From positions 68,891 through 132,890 of the forward strand of contig CAYGKV010000001.1 in assembly GCA_964350885.1 (NCBI GenBank): a DNA stretch of 64,000 nt, in the 5' to 3' direction. The translations under genes and the position numbers were made by a program. The stretch is from an uncultured Candidatus Saccharibacteria bacterium. GTDB taxonomy: Bacteria > Patescibacteriota > Minisyncoccia > Phycocordibacterales > UBA2100. The notes beneath the pieces were generated by a model, which had not been told where the DNA came from, searched no databases, and was given only the letters and a program-made list of their open reading frames with translations. Below, piece after piece: positions 2,765 to 26,032 of the stretch; position 1 is the stretch's first letter; every line of letters starts with the position of its first letter.

Positions 2765-3919
2765 ATGACAAAAGAGAACTCAATCCAAAATTTCGTGGAG
2801 GCGCATCCGGAGCTGCAAACTCCGTACTATCTCATCGACGAGACGCTCCTCCTCAAAAACATGAGGAAGATGCGCTATGTCCACGAAAAGAGTGGAGCGA
2901 AATCAGTACTCGCGCTCAAGTGTTTTTCCACGTGGTCGGTATTTCCTCTCATGAGTCAGTACATGGATGGCACGACATCAAGCTCGCTCTTTGAGGCGCG
3001 ACTCGGGCATGAGAAATTCGGGAAAGAAACGCATGCGTATAGTGTCGCGTGGAGTGAAAGCGAGGTGCGCGAAGTACGTTCGTTCGCCACCAAGATAATT
3101 TTCAACTCCGTATCTCAATTAAAACAATTCAACGAAATCGCACAGGGGATCCCGCTCGGACTCCGCATCAATCCCGGCGTGTCATACTCGCACCACACGC
3201 TATCGGATCCTGCACGCGCCTATTCTCGCCTCGGCGCTCTCGATGCGAATGAGATCGAAGCGGTGAGCAATCTCATAAGCGGCGTGATGTTCCACGTCAA
3301 TTGTGAGAATGACGACCTGGATGCGTTCGTGAATATTTTGGAAACTATCGGTGAGAGGTACGGCGCTCTGTTGCAAAAGCTGGAGTGGGTGACACTCGGT
3401 GGTGGAATCTATTTCACCAAAGAAGGGTACCCGATCGATGCATTTTGTGACACCATTGCAGCTTTCTCAAAAAAATATGATGTCCAAATTTACCTGGAAC
3501 CGGGAGAGAGTTCGATTACGCGCTGCGGATATCTCGTTACGTCCGTACTCGACATCGTCCACAACGACATCGATATCGCGATCGTCGACGCTGCTGCCAA
3601 CGCGCACATGCCCGATCTCCTGACGTACCAGACACCAGCAAAAATGGACGCGCCGATTGACGGTCCTCTGGCCACGCACGAGTACCAGATTGCCGGCCGC
3701 ACCTGCCTTGCCGGGGATATATTTGGCACCTACAAATTCCCTGCTAAACTGCACGTCGGAAGTCTCGTCCCGATTGCCGATGCGGCAGGGTACACGATGG
3801 TACAGAAGACATGGTTCAATGGAGTGCCCATGCCGAGTATCGTCGTCAAACGTCTGGATGGGAAGATTGATGTCGTGAGACAATTTAGTTACGATGAATA
3901 TCGTGACGGTTTATCTTAA
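2765..3919 (+). CDS. nspC: carboxynorspermidine/carboxyspermidine decarboxylase
   Basis: PYYLIDE...SGAKSVLALKCF...DGTTSSSL...ETHAYSVAW pattern of the CANSDC family. Adjacent to a CANSDH-like gene. Confidence 0.75.
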   Translation: MTKENSIQNFVEAHPELQTPYYLIDETLLLKNMRKMRYVHEKSGAKSVLALKCFSTWSVFPLMSQYMDGTTSSSLFEARLGHEKFGKETHAYSVAWSESEVREVRSFATKIIFNSVSQLKQFNEIAQGIPLGLRINPGVSYSHHTLSDPARAYSRLGALDANEIEAVSNLISGVMFHVNCENDDLDAFVNILETIGERYGALLQKLEWVTLGGGIYFTKEGYPIDAFCDTIAAFSKKYDVQIYLEPGESSITRCGYLVTSVLDIVHNDIDIAIVDAAANAHMPDLLTYQTPAKMDAPIDGPLATHEYQIAGRTCLAGDIFGTYKFPAKLHVGSLVPIADAAGYTMVQKTWFNGVPMPSIVVKRLDGKIDVVRQFSYDEYRDGLS

Positions 3920-3931
3920 AGACAAACAAAT

Positions 3932-5248
3932 ATGAAGCCGAATGTATTAATTGTCGGAGCCGGCGCGGTGGCACATGTCGCTGCGCACAAAGCTGCCCAG
4001 AACAACGATATCTTGGGAGACATTTGCATCGCGACGCGCAAAAAAGGGAAGGCGGATCAGATACTCAAGAGCATCCAGCGCAAAAAAAGCATTAAAGACA
4101 AACGCGGGAAAATATATTCTCGAGAAGTCGACGCGATGAAAATCCCCGAGATGGTGAAGCTCATCAAGGAGACCAATTCATCGATCGTTATCAATCTCGG
4201 CACCGCATACATCAACATGTCTGTCCTCGAGGCATGCATCCGCGCCAAGTCTGTTGGCGGTCGCCCGGTGACCTATATGGACACCGCCATCCATGAAGAT
4301 CCGAAGAAAGTCGCTGAAGATCCGCCATGGTACGCGAATTACGAATGGAAAAAGAAAGCGGCATGTAAAAAGGCAGGCATCAATGCAATCCTCGGGATCG
4401 GCTTCGATCCGGGGGTGGTAAATGTGTGGGCCGCGCTCGCTCAAAAAAGATATTTCGACACGATCGAGACGATCGACATTCTCGACGTAAACGCGGGAAG
4501 TCATGGCAAATACTTCGCCACCAATTTCGACCCCGAAATCAATTTCCGCGAGTTTAAAAAAGTGTGGACATGGATCAATCGCACATGGGTGGAGCGCCCG
4601 GTGCACAGCGAGCGCTGGGACTACACCTTTCCTGTCGTTGGGAAATGCCCCGTCTACCTCAATGGCCACGATGAACTGCACTCTCTTTCCAAAAACATCA
4701 AGGCGAAAAGCATCCGCTTCTGGATGGGTTTTGGCGACCATTACCTCAATGTGTTTGGTGTATTGCGCAACCTCGGCATGCTCTCTGAAAAACCGGTTAC
4801 GACCGCCGAAGGAGTGAAAGTCGTTCCTCTAAAAGTCCTGAAAGCCGTGTTGCCCGATCCCGCCTCGCTCGCAAAGACATACACGGGCTGGACGTGCATC
4901 GCTGACTTGGTGAAGGGTTGGAAAGACGGGAAGTGGCGCGAGGTCTTCATCTACAACAACTGCGATCATGCGGCGTGTTATAGGGAAGTTGAATCTCAAG
5001 CCATCTCTTACACCGCAGGCGTACCGCCAATCGCAGCTGCTATACTCGTCGCCCAGGGCGCGTGGAATCCTCGGACCATGGTCAATGCGGAAGAGCTTGA
5101 CCCTGATCCATTCATTAAGGTCTTGAACCGCATCGGACTTCCGACAGAGATAAAAGATACAACACCGAAAGACGGTAGGCCGAGCGAAGATGGGATGCCG
5201 ATCTCTGCAACAAGATCAAATAGTGTCAAAGTCGATGCCGTTTGGTAA
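3932..5248 (+). CDS. carboxynorspermidine dehydrogenase (saccharopine dehydrogenase family)
   Basis: N-terminal Rossmann motif VLIVGAGAVAHVAAHKAAQN and overall CANSDH-like architecture. Paired with nspC. Confidence 0.7.
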   Translation: MKPNVLIVGAGAVAHVAAHKAAQNNDILGDICIATRKKGKADQILKSIQRKKSIKDKRGKIYSREVDAMKIPEMVKLIKETNSSIVINLGTAYINMSVLEACIRAKSVGGRPVTYMDTAIHEDPKKVAEDPPWYANYEWKKKAACKKAGINAILGIGFDPGVVNVWAALAQKRYFDTIETIDILDVNAGSHGKYFATNFDPEINFREFKKVWTWINRTWVERPVHSERWDYTFPVVGKCPVYLNGHDELHSLSKNIKAKSIRFWMGFGDHYLNVFGVLRNLGMLSEKPVTTAEGVKVVPLKVLKAVLPDPASLAKTYTGWTCIADLVKGWKDGKWREVFIYNNCDHAACYREVESQAISYTAGVPPIAAAILVAQGAWNPRTMVNAEELDPDPFIKVLNRIGLPTEIKDTTPKDGRPSEDGMPISATRSNSVKVDAVW

Positions 5249-5251
5249 GTC

Positions 5252-5983
5252 ATGAATGAGCGCGAGGCTGAAGTTAAAATCGAGGCTTCGTGGAAAGCGG
5301 CGTTGAAAGACGAGTTCGGCAAGGAGTACTTCAAGATGCTCCGAGACTTCGTCAAAAATGAGTACCAACACGCTGTCGTTTTCCCGCCACCGAAGAACAT
5401 TTTCCGCGCATTTGAACTCTGTCCATTCGACAAGGTAGAGGTCGTAATCCTCGGACAAGATCCATATCACGGCGCCAGCCAAGCCAATGGCCTCTGCTTT
5501 GCCGTGAGTGAGGGCGTGCCTGTGCCGCCGTCGCTGCAAAATATATTCAAAGAACTTTCAGCAGATTGCTCTTTGCCCTTCGAAGCCTTGGCGAAGAAGG
5601 GCGGTAGTCTAGAACACTGGGCCAAGCAGGGGGTACTACTCTTGAACGCGACACTCACCGTTCGTGCCCGAACGCCCGGTTCGCACCAAGGAAAAGGGTG
5701 GGAAGAGTTTACCGATTCCGTCATCCGCAAGCTCTCGGAGGAGCGCGAGAATCTCGTTTTCATCCTATGGGGCAACTACGCCAAAGCCAAAGGCGCGCAC
5801 ATTGATCGCACCAAGCATCTCGTCATAGAATCCGCTCACCCATCGCCATTCTCTGCCCACAGCGGATTCTTCGGCTCCAGACCTTTCAGCAAAACCAACG
5901 AGTATCTTTCGACTCACAACAAAAAACCAATTGATTGGTTGCAGAACAATCTTATTTCAATACACACCAAACTTACGCTATAG
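5252..5983 (+). CDS. ung: uracil-DNA glycosylase (family 1)
   Basis: GQDPYH motif, HPSPFSAHSGFFG C-terminal motif. Confidence 0.85.
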   Translation: MNEREAEVKIEASWKAALKDEFGKEYFKMLRDFVKNEYQHAVVFPPPKNIFRAFELCPFDKVEVVILGQDPYHGASQANGLCFAVSEGVPVPPSLQNIFKELSADCSLPFEALAKKGGSLEHWAKQGVLLLNATLTVRARTPGSHQGKGWEEFTDSVIRKLSEERENLVFILWGNYAKAKGAHIDRTKHLVIESAHPSPFSAHSGFFGSRPFSKTNEYLSTHNKKPIDWLQNNLISIHTKLTL

Positions 5984-5999
5984 CGTAAGTTTGGTGTGT
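5963..5999. terminator. perfect 37-nt palindrome between convergent ung and M16 peptidase genes (likely bidirectional terminator)
   Basis: ACACACCAAACTTACGCTA|TAGCGTAAGTTTGGTGTGT. The ung stop TAG lies at the centre. Weak U-tracts on both sides. Confidence 0.5.
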
Positions 6000-6004
6000 G
6001 ATGA

Positions 6005-7273
6005 TTAGATTTTCAAAGATTTCAAAAATACGTCTTTGTGCAGGTGCGGGCCGATGATGGCGAGATTGAGGGCGTTGGTCTTTAGGATGTCCTCTGCGAC
6101 GCGTTGGACGTCACTCGCTGACACCTTGTCGATACCTTTGATTATTTCCTCCAGCGAGCGGATTTTGCCGATGGTGATGAGTGAGGTCGCGGCGTTCTGG
6201 GCGATTTCGTCACTCGTTTCTAGCGAGAGGGTGAGCGTGCCTTTGATGTAGGATTTGGCTTTCTCAAGCTCTGTTGCAGATACTTTCACCCGCTTTATTT
6301 TTTTGAATTCAGCGAGAATGGTTTGTATGGTTTTTTCCAATTTTCCGTGCTCTACGCCAGCTTGCACGACGAAGTAGCCTGTGTCCGGGTATTTATCTGC
6401 CCACGCATGGACGGAATAAGCGAGTCCGCGTTTCTCGCGCACTTCGAGGAAGAGGCGACTGCTCATCCCGCCGCCTAGAATAGTAGTAAGGACGGCAAGC
6501 GCGTATTCATCTTTGTGTTCGTATGGATATGCGGGTACACCGAGCATGAGCTGGGTCTGATCGGTTTTCTTTTCTTTTATAGCGACACGAGGTTCAGTTT
6601 GCAGGGCAGAGAAGGTGGCGTAGGTGGGCGCGGGAGCGGATTTGAGGCGGCCGAACTCTTTTTTCACCTTTGCGAGAATTTTTGGAGAAGAGAACGAACC
6701 AGCGATGCAGACGACGGTGTTGGCAGGTACGTAATTCCTCTTGAGATATTCTGAAAAATCTTTGCGTGAGAACGCGCGAATGTTTTCTTTGGGCCCCAGG
6801 ATGGTGCGACCGAGAGCATGATCGCCGAAGATGAGGGCATCGAAGACATTATCCACCGTGCGCATCGGCATATCCTCGTACATATCGATCTCCTGGATAA
6901 TAGCTCCGCGCTCTTTGGTGATCTCCTTTTGTGGCAAGGTCGAGTTGAGAAAGATGTCGGTGATCACATCAAGCGCCGTGTCGAGGTATCGGGCACTCAC
7001 CTTGGCGTAATAGGCAGTCCTATCTTTTGAGGTGAACGCATTGTAGACGCTACCCGTAGCATCGAGCTCTTCGCTGATTGCGCGCGCAGTCTGGCGTTTC
7101 TTGGTTCCTTTGAAAAACATGTGTTCCAAGAAGTGCGCGAGTCCATTCTCGTGCATACTTTCGTATCGCGAACCGGTGCCCGACATAACGACCACCGTCG
7201 CGGTCGTCGTGTCCGGCATGGGAGCAAGTACTACTCGCAGACCGTTCTTTAGCGTGTGAATGTCGTATCTCAT
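6005..7273 (-). CDS. M16 family zinc peptidase (insulinase-like)
   Basis: HFLEHM (HxxEH) inverted zinc-binding motif near the N-terminus. 422 aa. Confidence 0.75.
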   Translation of the reverse strand: MRYDIHTLKNGLRVVLAPMPDTTTATVVVMSGTGSRYESMHENGLAHFLEHMFFKGTKKRQTARAISEELDATGSVYNAFTSKDRTAYYAKVSARYLDTALDVITDIFLNSTLPQKEITKERGAIIQEIDMYEDMPMRTVDNVFDALIFGDHALGRTILGPKENIRAFSRKDFSEYLKRNYVPANTVVCIAGSFSSPKILAKVKKEFGRLKSAPAPTYATFSALQTEPRVAIKEKKTDQTQLMLGVPAYPYEHKDEYALAVLTTILGGGMSSRLFLEVREKRGLAYSVHAWADKYPDTGYFVVQAGVEHGKLEKTIQTILAEFKKIKRVKVSATELEKAKSYIKGTLTLSLETSDEIAQNAATSLITIGKIRSLEEIIKGIDKVSASDVQRVAEDILKTNALNLAIIGPHLHKDVFLKSLKI

Positions 7274-7584
7274 TCCTGTTCAGTTATACCGTAATATTTT
7301 TTTTCATGCTTTTCCACCTCACCAAGAAGTTCGGGGCTAATAAAGGTTTTTGCCCCGACCTTGCAGAGATTGGCGTTTTGATACGCAACATCTTTATCTT
7401 TGAGTGTTTTTTCGATAAATGATCGGAAGTGGGTATCGATTGTTCCCTGTTTCATCTTAGAGTGTTTGTTCGCTAGAAAAAAGGATACATCTCCTGTAGA
7501 AATCCATCCGTTTGCTTTGAGTTCTGATACTTTTGTCCGGTCCAGAACTCGCTGTTTGAGTATCTGATTCATTTTTTCCGACAT
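7270..7584 (-). CDS. hypothetical protein (low-GC)
   Basis: ORF with ATG at 7584 or 7572. Its stop overlaps the M16 start (ATGA). About 40% GC versus about 55% locally. No recognisable motif. Confidence 0.3.
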   Translation of the reverse strand: MSEKMNQILKQRVLDRTKVSELKANGWISTGDVSFFLANKHSKMKQGTIDTHFRSFIEKTLKDKDVAYQNANLCKVGAKTFISPELLGEVEKHEKKYYGITEQE

Positions 7585-19573: not shown

Positions 19574-20650
19574 ATGAAAAACTACTACGATATTTTGGGT
19601 GTGGCAAAATCGGCGACCGAAGAAGACATTAAAAAAGCATTCAGGAAACTTGCACACAAGTATCATCCTGATAAAAAGGGTGGGGATGAAAAAAAGTTCA
19701 AAGAGGTGAGCGAGGCGTATTCGGTACTCTCCGACAAAAAGAAGCGCGCGGAATTCGATACCTACGGCAAGACGTTTGCCGGCGGCGCGGCGGGAGGACA
19801 ACAGGCAGGGGGCTTCGGTGGTTTCGACTTTTCGAATTTCCAAGGATTCGGCGGACAAGGAGGGAGTGTGGAGTTTGACCTTGGGGATATCTTTGGCGAT
19901 GTGTTTGGTGGAGGACAGAGTCGCGCGCGCCGCGGGAGAGATATTTCAATCGATCTTGAGCTTTCCTTTCGCGAATCCATCTTTGGTGCCGAGCGACGCA
20001 TCCTTCTCGCAAAAATAAGTGCCTGTGATACCTGTAGTGGGACGGGCGCAAAGGCGGGTACCAAAACGATATCGTGCACAACCTGTAATGGAAAAGGGGA
20101 GATCCGAGAGTCGCGCAATTCTTTTTTTGGGACGTTCGCTACTTCGCGTTCGTGTCCACGCTGTCACGGCCGGGGCGAAATGCCCGAGAGCGCATGCGAA
20201 TCATGCCGAGGCGAAGGAGTGCGGAAACGCGAAGAAGAAATTCACGTCGTTGTACCCGCGGGCGTGGAAGATGGGGAAATGATACGCATGCCAAGTCGCG
20301 GCGAAGCTACTCCGGGAGGAGGGGCGGGAGATTTGTATGTCAAACTCCACGTCAAGGCAGATAGTAAATTTTCACGCGATGGACACAATCTCATTACGTC
20401 GCTTCCCATCAAACTAACCGACGCGCTCTTGGGTCGAGAATATTCTGTGCCTACGCTCGATGGCGAGGAGATGCTCACCGTGCCGGGAGGGGTCGCGCAC
20501 GGCGAGATCATGCGAATACGCGGCAAAGGAGTGCCTCATGGACGAGGAGCTCGCGGTGACCTATTGGTGCGCATTGATATCGAATTTCCCAAGAAGCTTT
20601 CAAAAAGCGCTCGCGAATTGATCGAGAAACTTCGTACGGAAGGAATGTAG
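19574..20650 (+). CDS. dnaJ: molecular chaperone DnaJ
   Basis: J-domain YYDILGV...KYHPDK, G/F-rich region, four CxxCxGxG zinc-finger repeats. Start at ATG 19574 inside the longer track ORF. Confidence 0.9.
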
Positions 20651-20701
20651 TCGCGTGGGATAACTCACAACCACTGTGTTGCGATGTAGTAAAATACGCC
20701 G

Positions 20702-21190
20702 ATGGATATACAAGCTTGGGAAACGCTCATAACCGGATGGCCAACCGACTGGATAATCATTGGCGCCCTCGCCATATTCGTGGCGCTCGACGCGCTCCGC
20801 TCCGGCACTGCCCGCGCCGCGGCTCTCATGCTCTCGCTCCCTGTAGCGCTGTTTGTGACAAACGCACTTCCGCAAGCTATGTTCCTCGGGCCTCTCTCGG
20901 CACAAATTACCGCGCCGCTTGCCCAGGTCGGTATATTTATCGTGATTGCAGTACTCCTGTATTTCGTCGCCCACAGAGCCATTTTTGCGTTCTCGGAGGG
21001 GGGAGGGGTCGTCCAAGCGCTTATTGCCGGCGGCGCGACTGTCGTTGTCTTGCTTATCATCTGGCTCCAAGTGCCCGCCTTGCAATCCATTTGGAATTTC
21101 GGCCCATCGGTACAGATGATTTTCGGTGAAGCCTACCGCTTCTGGTGGCTCGCAATCTCGTACGCAGCTCTCGGGTTTGTCCGGAGCTAA
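20702..21190 (+). CDS. CvpA-like 4-TM membrane protein
   Basis: DWIIIGALAIFVALDALRSG...LSLPVALFV pattern resembles the colicin V production protein CvpA. 162 aa. Confidence 0.4.
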   Translation: MDIQAWETLITGWPTDWIIIGALAIFVALDALRSGTARAAALMLSLPVALFVTNALPQAMFLGPLSAQITAPLAQVGIFIVIAVLLYFVAHRAIFAFSEGGGVVQALIAGGATVVVLLIIWLQVPALQSIWNFGPSVQMIFGEAYRFWWLAISYAALGFVRS

Positions 21191-21328
21191 AAAGGCGGCG
21201 GTTTCCGCAAGCTATCGAACTATTACGGCTGGTTTGTATCAGTGTTGAATTCGTGGTGTAATGGCGGGAGTGGCGGATAAACCGTCCGGGATATCTCACC
21301 TCGAAAGCTGAGATTGGAGGGCTGAAAG

Positions 21329-22012
21329 ATGCCGAATATTTCTTTGGAGCAGTGGATCCTGCTCTTCGGTATAATCTCGGGCTTTCTTCAGGTCCTCGGA
21401 TATACTGTTTACATTCGGGAAAGTTTCCGGAAGGAGATAGATCCGAATCCGGCGACATGGTTGATGTTCAGTTATGGGACCTCGTTACTCGCGATCCTTG
21501 AATGGGATCGCGATGCGTCGCTTGCTCTACTTGCGCTCCCCGTAGCATGCGCAGGGATGAGCATCATTGTCGCCATTCTCTGTTGGTTGCGCGGCACATT
21601 ACGGTGGCCGCGTGATTGGGAAAGTCAATGGGCAATACGAGCTTTCATCGCTGACGTGGGGCTCACCACAGCTTACTTTGTGGCGTGGGTACTCAACATG
21701 TCAGAGATTCTCGCAGAAGAAGGGCGCTCAATAGCCGCCCTCGTGTTCCTTATTGGGTCGAATGTGACAACGTTTACCGCATTTACCCCGATACTGCAAG
21801 AGGTCTATGAGAGCCCACAAAAAGAACGCGCGTTGCCCTGGATCGTGTGGACCCTGGCGTACACGACGCTGGGCGTTGCCACCATCCTCGAGAGCGGTTT
21901 CTGGACTGAATTGCTCATCTATCCCGTATGCTGCACGTTTCTCCATGGTGCTATTGCCTGGTTGGCGCGGCCAGAACGCCGACTTCTTCGATTGAGCAGG
22001 GCAGCGAAATAA
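21329..22012 (+). CDS. 7-TM membrane protein, paralog A (unknown family)
   Basis: About 7 predicted TM helices. Motifs NPATWLMFSYGT, ILEWDRDAS, PILQEVYESP and ALPW are shared with the downstream paralog. Confidence 0.5.
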   Translation: MPNISLEQWILLFGIISGFLQVLGYTVYIRESFRKEIDPNPATWLMFSYGTSLLAILEWDRDASLALLALPVACAGMSIIVAILCWLRGTLRWPRDWESQWAIRAFIADVGLTTAYFVAWVLNMSEILAEEGRSIAALVFLIGSNVTTFTAFTPILQEVYESPQKERALPWIVWTLAYTTLGVATILESGFWTELLIYPVCCTFLHGAIAWLARPERRLLRLSRAAK

Positions 22013-22017
22013 ATTTG

Positions 22018-22049
22018 GGGCCACGTCTCGCGACGTGGTCCTCTTCTTG
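22018..22049 (+). terminator. hairpin after paralog A
   Basis: GGGCCACGTC-tcgc-GACGTGGTCC 10-bp stem (one GU pair) followed by TCTTCTTGT. Confidence 0.45.
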
Positions 22050-22213
22050 TAGCACTCTCCGTTGCAAAAACACTATCCAGCGCCTTCATTCTTGGGCTAC
22101 TCTCGCAGCAGTCCAAGCACTCATCACTGGCTCTGTAGTAGTTCAGTAAACGATATTTATTTTTTACACAGGGGAGCCTTGTGTATTGGGGTGGAATGCT
22201 TAGAGTTCACTCC

Positions 22214-22864
22214 ATGGAAACACTTGCGCTTGGGCTATTGGCTGCGATTTTGCAAGCATTGGGATACCTTGCCTATGGATTCAAGGTGTTGAAACGAGAC
22301 ATCACCCCCAACGCCACTTCGTGGTTAATGTTTGCGTACGGCACGACATTTCTATTGATTCTTGAGTGGGATCGAGATGCAAGTATTGCCCTCCTCGCTC
22401 TCCCCGCAATCTGCGCGCTCTCCAGTATTGGCATTGCGGTGTACTGTGTGCGACGCACCAAACGTGCGTGGTGGCCAGAGCATCCGCTCGAGCGTTTTTC
22501 ATTTGCTCTCGATATTGCACTTACGGTTTCCTACATCTTCGTATGGATATTGCTGTTACGCGGAATTGTCGTTGAATCTAACAAAGATGTTGCCGATATT
22601 CTCATCCTCGCATGCTGGAATTTCGGTGTGTTCACGGCATTCTTCCCAATTTTGCGTCAGGTATATCATCATCCCGCATCAGAAAAAGCCCTGCCTTGGG
22701 CAATCTGGACCTACGCGTATGCAACGCTCTTGTTCATAACAATACTCGAGCAGGGCAACCTCAGCGAACTCACGCTCTACCCAGCGATTAACGCAGTCGT
22801 ACACGGAGCTATCGCACTCCGGGTCGGATATTGGCATTGGAGACACCGTTTTTCTGTGGTATAA
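22214..22864 (+). CDS. 7-TM membrane protein, paralog B (unknown family)
   Basis: About 45% identical to paralog A (NATSWLMFAYGT, ILEWDRDAS, PILRQVYHHP, ALPW). Start taken at ATG 22214. Confidence 0.5.
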   Translation: METLALGLLAAILQALGYLAYGFKVLKRDITPNATSWLMFAYGTTFLLILEWDRDASIALLALPAICALSSIGIAVYCVRRTKRAWWPEHPLERFSFALDIALTVSYIFVWILLLRGIVVESNKDVADILILACWNFGVFTAFFPILRQVYHHPASEKALPWAIWTYAYATLLFITILEQGNLSELTLYPAINAVVHGAIALRVGYWHWRHRFSVV

Positions 22865-22926
22865 TCCCGCGCATAATAAACAGAAACGCCAACCTGTACG
22901 CTGTTCATCACAATCAAACATTACCC

Positions 22927-23406
22927 ATGAAAAAGGTTTACATCGGAAAAAGCAAAATCGCAGGGAGAGGGCTTTTTGCTGGTGAAAACATACGGAAAGG
23001 TGATTTTATTCTTCCACTAAGGGGTACACTGATCCATAAAGAGTACCGTCGCGTTGGTAAATATCGAAACGAACAAACATGGATACCTGTTTCTTTGCAT
23101 AGATGGATACGCCCGATATCTCCAATTCGATTTTTGAATCACTCATGTGAACCGAATGCGGGCTTCAAAACGCCGACACGTCTCTACGCATCGCGTGATA
23201 TAGCACAAGACCAAGAGATTGTTGTTGACTATTCAACTATAGAATACTTGGAATTTTGGCAATCACCTTGCAATTGTGGCTCAAAACATTGTCGTCGAAT
23301 AATTCGTGCAATTCAGTTTCTTAAGCCGAAAACATATAAATCATACCTCCCCTACATCCCCAAGTTCCTACGCGACGTTTATGAAGACCGCCATCAAGCT
23401 GTATAA
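22927..23406 (+). CDS. SET-domain protein (putative protein lysine methyltransferase)
   Basis: GRGLFA (GxG), RFLNHSCEPN (NHSCxPN) and post-SET CNCGSKHC motifs. About 42% GC versus about 55% flanks. Confidence 0.7.
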   Translation: MKKVYIGKSKIAGRGLFAGENIRKGDFILPLRGTLIHKEYRRVGKYRNEQTWIPVSLHRWIRPISPIRFLNHSCEPNAGFKTPTRLYASRDIAQDQEIVVDYSTIEYLEFWQSPCNCGSKHCRRIIRAIQFLKPKTYKSYLPYIPKFLRDVYEDRHQAV

Positions 23407-23584
23407 TGGGGGGGTGAATCATGTCTTCAGTCCTGTCATTTTCACTGTTTTTGCAACCGCAATAATTGTCTCGATTTTCATTTGCTTTAAAGAACTGCTC
23501 ATCGAGCGCAATTATTCGATATTCACGACTGAGGAGCAAGTCGAAGCAGCGCAAACAGATTTAATAGCTCTACTCGGAGGCTGA
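23381..23584 (+). CDS. small single-TM protein
   Basis: ORF with TM helix VFSPVIFTVFATAIIVSIFICF. Possible alternative GTG start at 23414 just after the SET stop and a G-run. Immediately precedes the histidine kinase. Confidence 0.3.
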   Translation: MKTAIKLYNGGVNHVFSPVIFTVFATAIIVSIFICFKELLIERNYSIFTTEEQVEAAQTDLIALLGG

Positions 23585-23590
23585 TACGTT

Positions 23591-25258
23591 ATGGCACCTC
23601 TCATTGATCCATCGTCATGCGGGTGGGATTCGGCACGATTCCTCATTTTTTCAGACAACGTTTTTGCGAATTACATTTATTATTCCCACATTTTTCCAGC
23701 AGCTTCTGCTCTTGTATTGGGTTTTTTTATCTGGTTCAAATCACCGCGCTCCGCGGTTAACATCGCCCTCTTTTCTATTGCAATATTTTTTAGCATCTGG
23801 AGTTTTTTCGATTTGATTTTATGGGCAACTGATAAAACTCAGTACACGATGTTCTTTTGGTCAATTCAAATCTATTTCGATCTTTTACTCTATGTCGGGG
23901 CACTCTACTTCATCTATCTTTTTATCGATAAACGCGATGTCTCTCTTACTACGAAGATCATAATGATAGTTCCATTCATCCCACTCTTTTTCTTCGCACA
24001 TACGAATTACAATCTCATCGGGTTCGATTTCTCAAACTGCGATAGAGAGGCTCTTGAAGGGCTTTTGTGGCAATACGTCTACCTTGTGGAGATAGGGATC
24101 GTGACGTGGATAACGATTCTGGGTGCCCGGCGTTTTAGACGAGCACAAAACAAAGATACTCGAAAAGAAATTCTTTTAGTTACTGCCGGTATTCTTATTT
24201 TCCTCCTCTCCTTTTCGTGGGCAAACATTACAGGTAGTTTTGCAATTGATTGGGATCTCAGTCAGTATGGTTTATTCGGCATGCCAGTATTTTTAGCTTT
24301 CCTTTCGTATCTAATCGTGAGATATCGTGAGTTTGGTGTAAAGGTTCTCGCAGCACAAATCTTGGTTGCAATACTAACGCTTTTGATTCTTGCGATTCTT
24401 CTCATCCGAGACATTGAAGATGTCCGAATCATCGCAACCATTACAGCGTTGCTCACGGTGATGCTCGGTTACATATTGGTCAAAAGCGTGAAGCGCGAAG
24501 TTGAGCAACGTGAACTCATCGAGGTTCAGGAGAAAGAACTGGAGAGGGTAAATAAGCAGCAAGAAAACCTCTTGCACGTCATCAGTCATGAGATCAAGGG
24601 GTATCTCACCAAAAGCGAAGCGGGGTTTTCGGCGATTACGGAAGGGGATTACGGCGCGGTGCCGGAAAGATTGAGCGCAATGGCGACTTCCGCGCTTGCC
24701 GACGTACGCAAAGGGGTAGACATGGTGATGCAAATTCTTGATTCATCGAATCTCAAGAAAGGTACCGTTACGTTCAAAAAAGCGACGTTTGACTTCCAAG
24801 TCGCCGTCATGAATGTCATCCAGGAGCTTACCCCTGCGGCACAAGAGAAAAATCTGACGATTGATACCGGAATCGCGTGGGAGGGGAATTTCATGATCGA
24901 TGGAGATGAAAACAAACTTCGCCAACATGTAATAAGAAATCTTATTGACAACGCGATTCGATACACGCCATCAGGGAGTATTCGCGTCGAACTCGTAAGA
25001 AAAGACGGAAAAATCCGCTTCACGGTAGCAGATAACGGCGTAGGCATTACCCCAGAAGACATGGCGCATCTCTTCACCGAGGGCGGCCACGGCAAGGATT
25101 CCATCAAGGTCAACGTCCACTCCACCGGCTACGGTCTCTTCATCGCCAAGCAGGTCGTGGATACCCATAGTGGCAAAATCTGGGCCGAATCCGATGGTGC
25201 TGGCAAGGGCGCCACGTTCGTTGTTGAGTTGCCAGCGACGTACCGCCCCCTCAGATAG
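23591..25258 (+). CDS. sensor histidine kinase with N-terminal multi-TM (7TM-type) sensor region; no adjacent response regulator
   Basis: About 9 TM helices in the first ~300 aa. HisKA H-box HVISHEIKG. HATPase_c N, G1 and G2 boxes (NLIDNAIRYT, DNGVGI, GYGLFIAKQ). Confidence 0.8.
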   Translation: MAPLIDPSSCGWDSARFLIFSDNVFANYIYYSHIFPAASALVLGFFIWFKSPRSAVNIALFSIAIFFSIWSFFDLILWATDKTQYTMFFWSIQIYFDLLLYVGALYFIYLFIDKRDVSLTTKIIMIVPFIPLFFFAHTNYNLIGFDFSNCDREALEGLLWQYVYLVEIGIVTWITILGARRFRRAQNKDTRKEILLVTAGILIFLLSFSWANITGSFAIDWDLSQYGLFGMPVFLAFLSYLIVRYREFGVKVLAAQILVAILTLLILAILLIRDIEDVRIIATITALLTVMLGYILVKSVKREVEQRELIEVQEKELERVNKQQENLLHVISHEIKGYLTKSEAGFSAITEGDYGAVPERLSAMATSALADVRKGVDMVMQILDSSNLKKGTVTFKKATFDFQVAVMNVIQELTPAAQEKNLTIDTGIAWEGNFMIDGDENKLRQHVIRNLIDNAIRYTPSGSIRVELVRKDGKIRFTVADNGVGITPEDMAHLFTEGGHGKDSIKVNVHSTGYGLFIAKQVVDTHSGKIWAESDGAGKGATFVVELPATYRPLR

Positions 25259-25459: not shown

Positions 25460-26032
25460 ATGGGAAAGCTCCGCATTAACGCAAACACAGTTGTTTGCAT
25501 GAACGGGCTCGGGATGTTGCCTGGACCAGCAGAGGCGAGACACGTGGAGTCCGCCTACAGCTGCTTGAAAAGGCAGAGGATATGGGGGTTTTTGCGTTGG
25601 GTATTTCTATTTCTCGGTTTCTACCTACTCAGCGATGCCCCTGCCTTCCCCCTTGGAGGCGAGGAAGAAATTGCCCTCGAAACTTTAGGCGGTATTTTGT
25701 GCTTTCCGATCGCCCTTTTCTTTTTTTTCATGAAGGAAACGGCGGATGATCGTTTCGAAAACATGGAAGGAAGGCTGGGCCGAGACTTGGCCGACCTATA
25801 CGTGATTCTTGGGGTTGGACCCTTGGAACTACCCAAGACCCCGCTGAAAAAACAGCGGTCGAAAGCGGATGACGTTTTGCGCGAGGAGGCAGAGAGACTC
25901 TCAGTCCCTCAAGCGAACAGTCATGAGAACCAGGCGGCACGAAAAAGGTTCGGGAGGATTTTCGACCTGTTCAAAAGATTCGGACTTGTCGACGGCGACG
26001 AAGGCTGGGGTCCTTACTTCGTCAAGAGATGA
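25460..26032 (+). CDS. hypothetical 2-TM protein
   Basis: ATG ORF with two hydrophobic helices and a charged C-terminal half. Followed by a strong hairpin. Could alternatively overlap an ncRNA. Confidence 0.3.
   Translation: MGKLRINANTVVCMNGLGMLPGPAEARHVESAYSCLKRQRIWGFLRWVFLFLGFYLLSDAPAFPLGGEEEIALETLGGILCFPIALFFFFMKETADDRFENMEGRLGRDLADLYVILGVGPLELPKTPLKKQRSKADDVLREEAERLSVPQANSHENQAARKRFGRIFDLFKRFGLVDGDEGWGPYFVKR

Follow-up and report, generated by a model that had tools for sequence, protein, structure and literature searches.

In a window of 64,000 nucleotides (nt) of DNA from an uncultured Candidatus Saccharibacteria bacterium—the whole stretch that was analysed—we studied two adjacent genes, A and B, each encoding a membrane protein with seven transmembrane (7-TM) helices, together with the genes for a SET-domain methyltransferase and a sensor histidine kinase that follow them on the same strand (Table 1). 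Coordinates given alone are those of the window; labels of the L0xx or L16x type designate genome loci, and those of the P00xx type, as well as P0196, proteins. The first-pass annotation had described A and B as 7-TM paralogues about 45% identical. Both open reading frames (ORFs) are confirmed, their products share 47% identity over 189 amino acids (aa; BLASTP, E 2e-54), and the AlphaFold2 model has seven helices. From the data below we are highly confident that A and B are anciently diverged paralogues, of 3+1+3 fold and N-out/C-in topology, which stand first in a module composed of one or two 7-TM genes, a SET gene and a membrane sensor.

Table 1. Features of the 7-TM/SET/kinase locus, in window coordinates
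Feature	Position	Strand	Remarks
Gene A 5' leader, 138 nt	21191-21328	+	Non-coding; holds a 46-nt element at 21269-21313
Gene A, type A paralogue, 7-TM, 227 aa	21329-22012	+	ORF with ATG start and GGAGG ribosome-binding site
Terminator-like hairpin between A and B, T-rich tail	22017-22042	+	11 pairs (7 G-C), loop of 4
Gene B, type B paralogue, 7-TM	22181-22864 (longest frame)	+	ORF; start uncertain
Promoter-like site: TGGAGA, 16-nt spacer, TG-TATAAT	22838-22865	+	3' end of gene B, 5' of the SET gene
SET-domain S-adenosylmethionine (SAM) methyltransferase, 159 aa	22927-23406	+	Passes the curated cut-off of Pfam SET (PF00856) with E 1.4e-13
Membrane sensor histidine kinase, 555 aa	23591-25258	+	HATPase_c E 1.4e-26; multi-TM N-terminal region; H-box

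When species-representative genomes were scanned, 34 loci were obtained, 33 of them informative, in the Candidate Phyla Radiation (CPR)/Patescibacteria and in the Alphaproteobacteria; among them is L027, of Caulobacter segnis CC215. The SET domain is fused to the 7-TM protein, or encoded directly downstream on the same strand, in 31 of the 33 informative loci; fusions account for 10 of these 31, all alphaproteobacterial. In CPR the 7-TM, SET and kinase genes are present in all 20 loci examined—the SET slot of L012 excepted—and full-length homologues of the kinase, at 34-58% identity, lie directly 3' of SET in 20 out of 20. The kinase likewise follows SET in L162, L163, L164 and L166, of which L162, L163 and L166 were reached independently. 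Flanking housekeeping genes are kept less often than the kinase: DnaJ and the tryptophanyl- and aspartyl-tRNA synthetases (TrpRS, AspRS) occur in 9-13 loci. Besides, the upstream flanks of L163 differ from those of the other loci, so that the trio outlasts local synteny. The downstream SET-domain gene and histidine kinase had been correctly recognised in the first-pass annotation, where SET, the main clue to function, figured as a neighbour only; what has to be abandoned is its picture of a pair opening a small accessory block. 7-TM, SET and kinase form one conserved module, found in CPR and in Alphaproteobacteria, and because the kinase belongs to it, it is not the unrelated orphan that had been supposed.

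Each pairwise link of the module is also seen alone: 7-TM with SET in L022, L025 and L027, 7-TM with a sensor in L012 and L020, and SET with the kinase in L164. In L012 (Kaiserbacteria) a gene of the saccharopine-dehydrogenase family (5753-7186, 477 aa) stands between the 7-TM gene and the kinase, i.e. in the slot of SET; enzymes of this family have free small molecules as substrates and act on their primary amines. We found no description of the 7-TM/SET/sensor module in the literature, and the candidate comparative-genomics papers mention SET in unrelated contexts only. The parts are familiar, and their combination appears to be new.

The sensor of the module differs between the two groups: CPR bacteria have a multi-TM histidine kinase, Alphaproteobacteria either a CHASE4 histidine kinase or a CHASE4-GGDEF-EAL protein. 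In the window kinase, H333 of the H-box (SHEIKGYL) is the phospho-acceptor histidine expected of this class of enzymes and is invariant in 18 homologues; NCBIfam returned generic kinase matches, all under their equivalog cut-offs. We considered its N-terminal membrane region as a diverged copy of the 7-TM protein and rejected the idea (hhalign probability 1.6%). No Response_reg domain was found among the neighbours of the kinase in the window, nor in L004, L162, L163, L164 and L166. In Alphaproteobacteria a CHASE4 sensor is adjacent to or fused with the 7-TM protein in 12 of 15 loci, and this in three separate architectures: a CHASE4-GGDEF-EAL gene divergently upstream in nine sphingomonad-type loci, a CHASE4-HisKA-HATPase gene divergently upstream in L030 and L036, and, in L020, one single protein in the order 7TM, TM, CHASE4, TM, HisKA, HATPase, frameshifted in its assembly. 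N-terminal fragments of this last architecture are seen in P0052 and P0053. In L020 (4956-7300) the fusion frame is lost before HATPase, which resumes in another frame (tblastn, 6826-7299), by assembly error or because the gene is a pseudogene.

The SET protein of the window carries the features that define these enzymes: the NHSCxPN motif for SAM binding, the catalytic tyrosine of DY and the post-SET CxCx4C cysteines that bind zinc. N71, H72, C74, D101 and Y102 are invariant among 23 partner SETs, which share moreover, the window protein included, an insert, NW(I/V)G(I/V)G..W(I/L)DP, and a tail, IQxLP..YLPYIPxYFQxVY; they therefore constitute a dedicated subfamily. Searched against the PDB, the partner-SET profile is closest to the KMT2/SET1 histone methyltransferases (E ~1e-23; KMT2A 4e-23), and its best non-histone match is BurB (E 5.6e-17). 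About 15 of the 38 relatives in the first homologue search are proteins of 384-398 aa which also carry Pfam SET, and an exhaustive profile search, clustered at 50% identity, brought far more than 100 representatives, plus further fusions. In all 31 fusion proteins the 7-TM part precedes SET and is joined to it by a linker of roughly 10-30 aa; in the model of a fusion protein (pLDDT 74.6, pTM 0.63) helix 180-212 is predicted to lead into the first strand of SET, at residue 216. The plasmid collection held no match to the 7TM-SET fusion protein.

Some variation of the partner was observed. A CPR subclade of SETs (L009, L010, L011, L013, L014, L038 and the second SET of L019) is devoid of the post-SET CxCx4C and shows DPDYCFE...RRF instead, NHSC and DY being retained. 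The copy number varies too: two SET genes follow a single 7-TM gene in some genomes (L004, 6651-7531; L019; L025), and P0050 (530 aa) has a 7-TM domain followed by two SET domains. In L165 (Opitutae) the gene of a more distant SET relative (3654-4507, 33% identity) shares 4 nt with the end of the gene for a 116-aa four-helix membrane protein. That protein, with a weak EamA-like match, has no relation to the 7-TM family, and the two genes may represent another pairing of a membrane protein with SET.

Gene B has three candidate starts, GTG at 22181 (227 aa), ATG at 22196 (222 aa, the call of NCBI) and ATG at 22214 (216 aa); the public gene calls have 216 and 222 aa. Three of the four conserved motif blocks listed in the first-pass annotation are exact in A and B, namely ILEWDRDAS(L/I)ALLALP, FTAF(T/F)PIL(Q/R)(E/Q)VY..P and ALPW(I/A)(V/I)WT; the first block had been read slightly out of register and is PN(P/A)(A/T)(T/S)WLMF(S/A)YGT. 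In a neighbour-joining tree A and B sit in separate CPR clades, both old, which are called type A and type B; the type-B clade takes in gene B with L006_1, L015-L018, L021, L024 and L039. The copy adjacent to SET is of type A or of type B depending on the locus, and the order in two-copy loci varies, A-B-SET in the window and B-A-SET in L006. Judged from these sequences, the paralogy is ancient and retained by some genomes, a recent duplication not being its origin. The retained pair may form a heteromer or provide two specificities.

To which family do the 7-TM proteins belong? The first-pass annotation recognised none, and at the level of sequence this stands: neither Pfam nor NCBIfam matched A, B or any of the 37 aligned family members, so that the assignment to a known family by hidden Markov model (HMM) which it had named as contrary evidence was not obtained. 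MtN3_slv (PF03083) gave no match even at E <= 1 for any of the 37 members, and the family profile found nothing at E <= 10 among PDB sequences, SWEET included. Pfam did not detect PQ-loop (PF04193) either—in the alignment LQxxGY and PxxR/Q stand where the PQ dipeptides are expected—nor PnuC (PF04973), of which no structure figures among the top 50 Foldseek matches. The weak matches to TauE, YrhK, YwiC and EamA are far under the cut-offs, differ between members and were discarded. By contrast, the fold can be placed. The model of gene A, built from the family alignment, has seven long helices and is of good quality (predicted local distance difference test, pLDDT, 92.3; predicted TM-score, pTM, 0.87), and its 12 best Foldseek matches in the PDB are AtSWEET13, three cystinosin structures, OsSWEET2b and several KDEL-receptor structures, all aligned from end to end (TM-score ~0.42-0.58, probability 0.75-1.0). 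It shows the two three-helix bundles joined by a linker helix (3+1+3) that characterise the MtN3/PQ-loop superfamily. This is consistent with an internal N/C repeat, weakly detected (hhalign E 0.0015), and with symmetric motifs in the family alignment, PN..W and PW..W on the one hand, LxLPxxC and LxYPxxN on the other. According to the model, then, the family is new in sequence and lies inside a known structural superfamily, that of SWEET, PQ-loop and KDEL-receptor proteins. Among the families previously put forward, PQ-loop/SWEET thus holds at the level of fold, and PnuC, the S-components of ECF transporters and CAAX/PAP2 are without sequence or structural support.

In L166 (3108-3869) the 7-TM gene is missing from the public calls, which give small minus-strand ORFs in its place; the family HMM detects the gene at E 3e-53. 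Because there is no Pfam model and gene callers sometimes miss the gene, as there, the family is invisible to routine annotation.

The three structural relatives are instructive by their likeness and by their differences. With SWEET and SemiSWEET proteins (PF03083) the family shares the seven helices in 3+1+3, the N-out/C-in orientation, and conserved prolines and aromatic residues in equivalent helices of both repeats; AtSWEET13 (5xpd) is the best structural match (E 0.013, TM-score 0.55, 217 aligned columns). Unlike SWEET, however, it has no sequence similarity in Pfam or PDB profile searches and its helices are lined with acidic residues, which does not suggest a sugar; unlike SemiSWEET, this bacterial family is a full-length 7-TM protein rather than a 3-TM half unit, and it is partnered with SET. 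PQ-loop proteins are represented by cystinosin (7zkz, 8dke, 8dyp) at TM-scores of 0.53-0.58; the new family differs by the lack of a true PQ, LQxxGY in TM1 and P(I/L)(L/V)(R/Q) in TM5 being similarly placed. The substrates of PQ-loop proteins are amino acids, lysine and arginine included, and LAAT-1 is among the carriers of basic amino acids. PQLC2 and Ypq1-3 carry basic amino acids as well (PMC4649669). By analogy, and as a lead, lysine or arginine as substrates of the PQ-loop kin would suit a partner which is a lysine-type methyltransferase. The KDEL receptor (PF00810) is likewise a 7-TM protein of this fold (TM-score ~0.5 for 7rxc, 6i6j and others). It is a ligand-binding receptor that signals to cytoplasmic partners, so the fold need not transport; but it is eukaryotic, it binds a peptide C-terminus, and it has neither sequence similarity to our family nor an enzyme partner.

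Lysine and arginine are concentrated in loops 1, 3 and 5 and at the C-terminus (73 sequences); the topology is therefore N-out, C-in. The position of SET, which depends on cytoplasmic SAM and is attached to the C-terminus of the 7-TM part in every fusion, agrees with a C-terminus inside. Eight invariant and about ten near-invariant intramembrane residues are kept across CPR and Alphaproteobacteria. The invariant polar, acidic and aromatic residues are distributed over the outer part of the fold in the membrane (E58, T113, Y198), the middle (Y49, D109, N145, Y178) and the inner part (Y25, N40, W44, W171, W174, H206, E166). Three acidic and many aromatic residues would suit a cationic ligand.

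As the first-pass annotation noted, A and B have each their own upstream non-coding region, and a hairpin separates them. The region of B measures 201 nt (22013-22213, counting from the start at 22214). The hairpin has a free energy of -19.8 kcal/mol (z = -4.63), and none of 200 shuffles folds as well. Being terminator-like, it supports the end of a transcript after A; an independent regulation of A and B is plausible on this basis, and B, SET and kinase may constitute the next transcription unit. The promoter-like site ahead of SET agrees with the consensus at 10 of 12 positions and has an extended -10 TG, the total of such sites in the region being what shuffling leads one to expect. The idea of a riboswitch in the leaders was not borne out: a permissive Rfam scan of 20500-23700 returned just two microRNA matches at chance level (E 1.6 and 1.9), and the leaders of A and B fold unremarkably compared with shuffles (z = -0.73 and -1.97).

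The leader of A contains an element that has a counterpart. Its 46 nt, immediately 5' of the GGAGG site, make two small hairpins and are 82.6% identical (blastn E 2e-5) to 1419-1463 of L006 (Parcubacteria), also the leader of a type-A gene, whose protein is just 56% identical to the product of gene A. The hairpins are GGCGG-ATAAA-CCGYC and TCTYA-...-TGAGA, and the changes between the two copies keep the pairing. The element is known from these two related sequences and was not found at the other loci. A metagenome scan with a loosened motif gave 120 matches, about the number due to chance by a rough estimate; none of them adjoined a family gene and none had the full motif.

Around the module, a 162-aa hydrophobic protein without Pfam or NCBIfam match is encoded directly 5' of gene A (20702-21190), and L016, L017 and L018 each have a homologue of it (56-65% identity) in the equivalent place, flanked by DnaJ and the module. 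On the other side, the kinase is followed by an ORF of 190 aa (25460-26032) that matched no family; only a weak relative, with 23% identity, occupies the corresponding place in L017. In the stretch 23001-25000, where SET and the beginning of the kinase lie, the G+C content is clearly lower, 0.41-0.46, against ~0.52 across the rest of the window.

What might such a module do? We favour a reading, to which we give a probability of about 0.35, in which the 7-TM protein conducts a cationic amine-like solute, SET methylates this solute at the cytoplasmic mouth, and the sensor reads the solute or the state of the transporter. The 7-TM protein would be a transporter-like conduit for a small cationic compound of the amine type, e.g. 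a basic amino acid or a polyamine-like compound. SET would dock on its cytoplasmic mouth, as is suggested by the modelled fusions, where TM7 passes almost directly into the first SET strand. There it would methylate the solute leaving or entering the pore, so that an imported substrate would be trapped, or else a methylated compound would be produced and exported. Finally, this solute, or the operating state of the transporter, would be what the sensor detects, much as with the co-sensors known as "trigger transporters".

Several observations speak for this proposal. Most members of the SWEET/PQ-loop fold are transporters, and the conserved polar, acidic and aromatic residues of the family span the full depth of the membrane. 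The gene in the SET slot of L012 belongs to the saccharopine-dehydrogenase family, whose substrates are described above. The 7-TM protein has no conserved lysine in any of its cytoplasmic loops, which makes it an unlikely substrate of SET itself. Transporters tied to an enzyme or to a sensor are known elsewhere: in PnuC/NadR a SWEET-like uniporter works together with an enzyme that traps the substrate, whereas CbrA, LysP-CadC and DctA-DcuS couple a transporter to a sensor. In these systems the substrate of a facilitator is modified by a cytoplasmic enzyme, or its state is read by a sensor kinase, which is the likeness with the proposed working of the module; unlike it, none uses a SET methyltransferase, and PnuC is not among the structural matches. 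For SET there is also a precedent. BurB of Burkholderia (PDB 9l4t), a SET enzyme of 172 aa, S-methylates free methionine, which it binds mostly through main-chain contacts (PMC12542666). It is, like the partner SETs, small and bacterial, and it proves that a SET domain can methylate a free amino acid; on the other hand it is soluble and tetrameric, with no membrane partner mentioned (PMC12542666). The partner SETs differ from BurB by their greater proximity to enzymes of the KMT2 type and by an insert and C-terminal tail of their own.

This proximity, already apparent in the profile E-values (~1e-23 for KMT2/SET1, 5.6e-17 for BurB), is one of the points that weigh against the methylation of a solute, the more so as, to our knowledge, almost all characterised SET domains methylate lysines of proteins. 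To it must be added that the fusion model is of moderate confidence (pLDDT and pTM as given above), that SET is replaced in a single locus, L012, that a distant family member, P0196, has no SET neighbour, and that the fold includes the KDEL receptor, which does not transport. The direct 7TM-CHASE4 kinase fusions of L020, P0052 and P0053 suit a sensory or scaffold role at least equally.

These same points lead to the main rival explanation, in our judgement only a little less probable than the first, in which SET, tethered to the membrane, would be a protein lysine methyltransferase with the sensor as its target. In that case the 7-TM protein would be a ligand-binding scaffold of the KDEL-receptor kind, docking the helices of the sensor and positioning or gating SET, whose targets would be lysines of the histidine kinase, of the CHASE4 protein or of another membrane-proximal protein; their methylation would tune signalling, in a loosely CheR-like way. 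The likeness of the partner SETs to KMT2/SET1 and their intact lysine-methyltransferase catalytic motifs speak for this explanation, and the fusions of 7-TM to CHASE4 histidine kinases argue for a physical association of the 7-TM protein with the sensor. The existence of each of the three pairwise links alone also agrees with it, in particular L164, which keeps the SET-kinase pair without an adjacent 7-TM gene. Yet the module has no demethylase or other reversal enzyme, so that a cycle of the adaptation type is not evident; polar and acidic residues invariant over the full depth of the membrane exceed what a scaffold needs; it is difficult to see why an enzyme of small-molecule amines should take the place of SET in L012; and we found in the literature no precedent for lysine methylation of a bacterial sensor kinase. 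SAM methyltransferases genetically tied to membrane sensors do exist, as in CheR with the chemoreceptors and in PhcB-PhcS: CheR modifies its receptor, and PhcB makes a methyl-ester quorum signal which is sensed by the kinase PhcS. These enzymes are nevertheless of class I (Rossmann fold), they carry out O-methylation, they have no 7-TM partner, and they are related to the module neither in sequence nor in fold.

Could the 7-TM protein be a passive anchor, tethering SET without any ligand of its own, with SET methylating an unrelated protein of the envelope or a secreted one? Fusion and adjacency show that the two are co-localised, and it is generally known that many bacterial lysine methyltransferases act on surface proteins. 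We think this improbable all the same: an anchor has no need of a conserved 7-TM transporter fold, nor of the invariant and near-invariant intramembrane residues counted above, and it leaves unexplained both the recurrent sensor partner and the tandem of two old paralogue types. As for A and B being ordinary solute uniporters (e.g. for a sugar or a vitamin), with their own regulation, and lying beside SET and the kinase through inherited synteny, the transporter fold, the terminator-like hairpin after A and the fairly conserved surrounding CPR synteny (DnaK, DnaJ, TrpRS) would fit, but this is scarcely credible, being largely refuted by the 31 proteins in which 7-TM and SET are covalently fused, besides a pairing kept in two distant phyla and with different flanks (L163, Alphaproteobacteria) and a kinase kept more often (20/20 loci) than the housekeeping genes around it (9-13 loci).

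Beyond the choice between solute and sensor as the substrate of SET, we consider, at somewhat less than even odds, that the module is a new bacterial signalling device: a ligand handler of SWEET fold hard-wired to SET and to a membrane sensor, in which methylation by SET would be part of perception, whether it bears on an amine signal—made and exported, or imported and trapped—or on the sensor.

Bacterial SET proteins are mostly discussed as effectors of pathogens aimed at the chromatin of the host, or as acquisitions from eukaryotes. A SET subfamily tied to a membrane protein and to a sensor, in CPR and in free-living Alphaproteobacteria, points to an indigenous role at the membrane; were the module indeed a signalling device, SET would have in free-living and CPR bacteria a native role that concerns neither chromatin nor effectors. 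In the same way, full-length 7-TM proteins of SWEET fold are a eukaryotic hallmark, and the family would be a bacterial 7-TM branch of this fold with a different partner logic. Its carriers comprise a cultured strain, Caulobacter segnis CC215, and metagenome-assembled genomes assigned to the Sphingomonadales, an order with many cultivable members. CPR genomes, for their part, are small and contain few regulatory systems; a module which 20 of the 20 CPR loci examined have retained is likely to matter for CPR biology.

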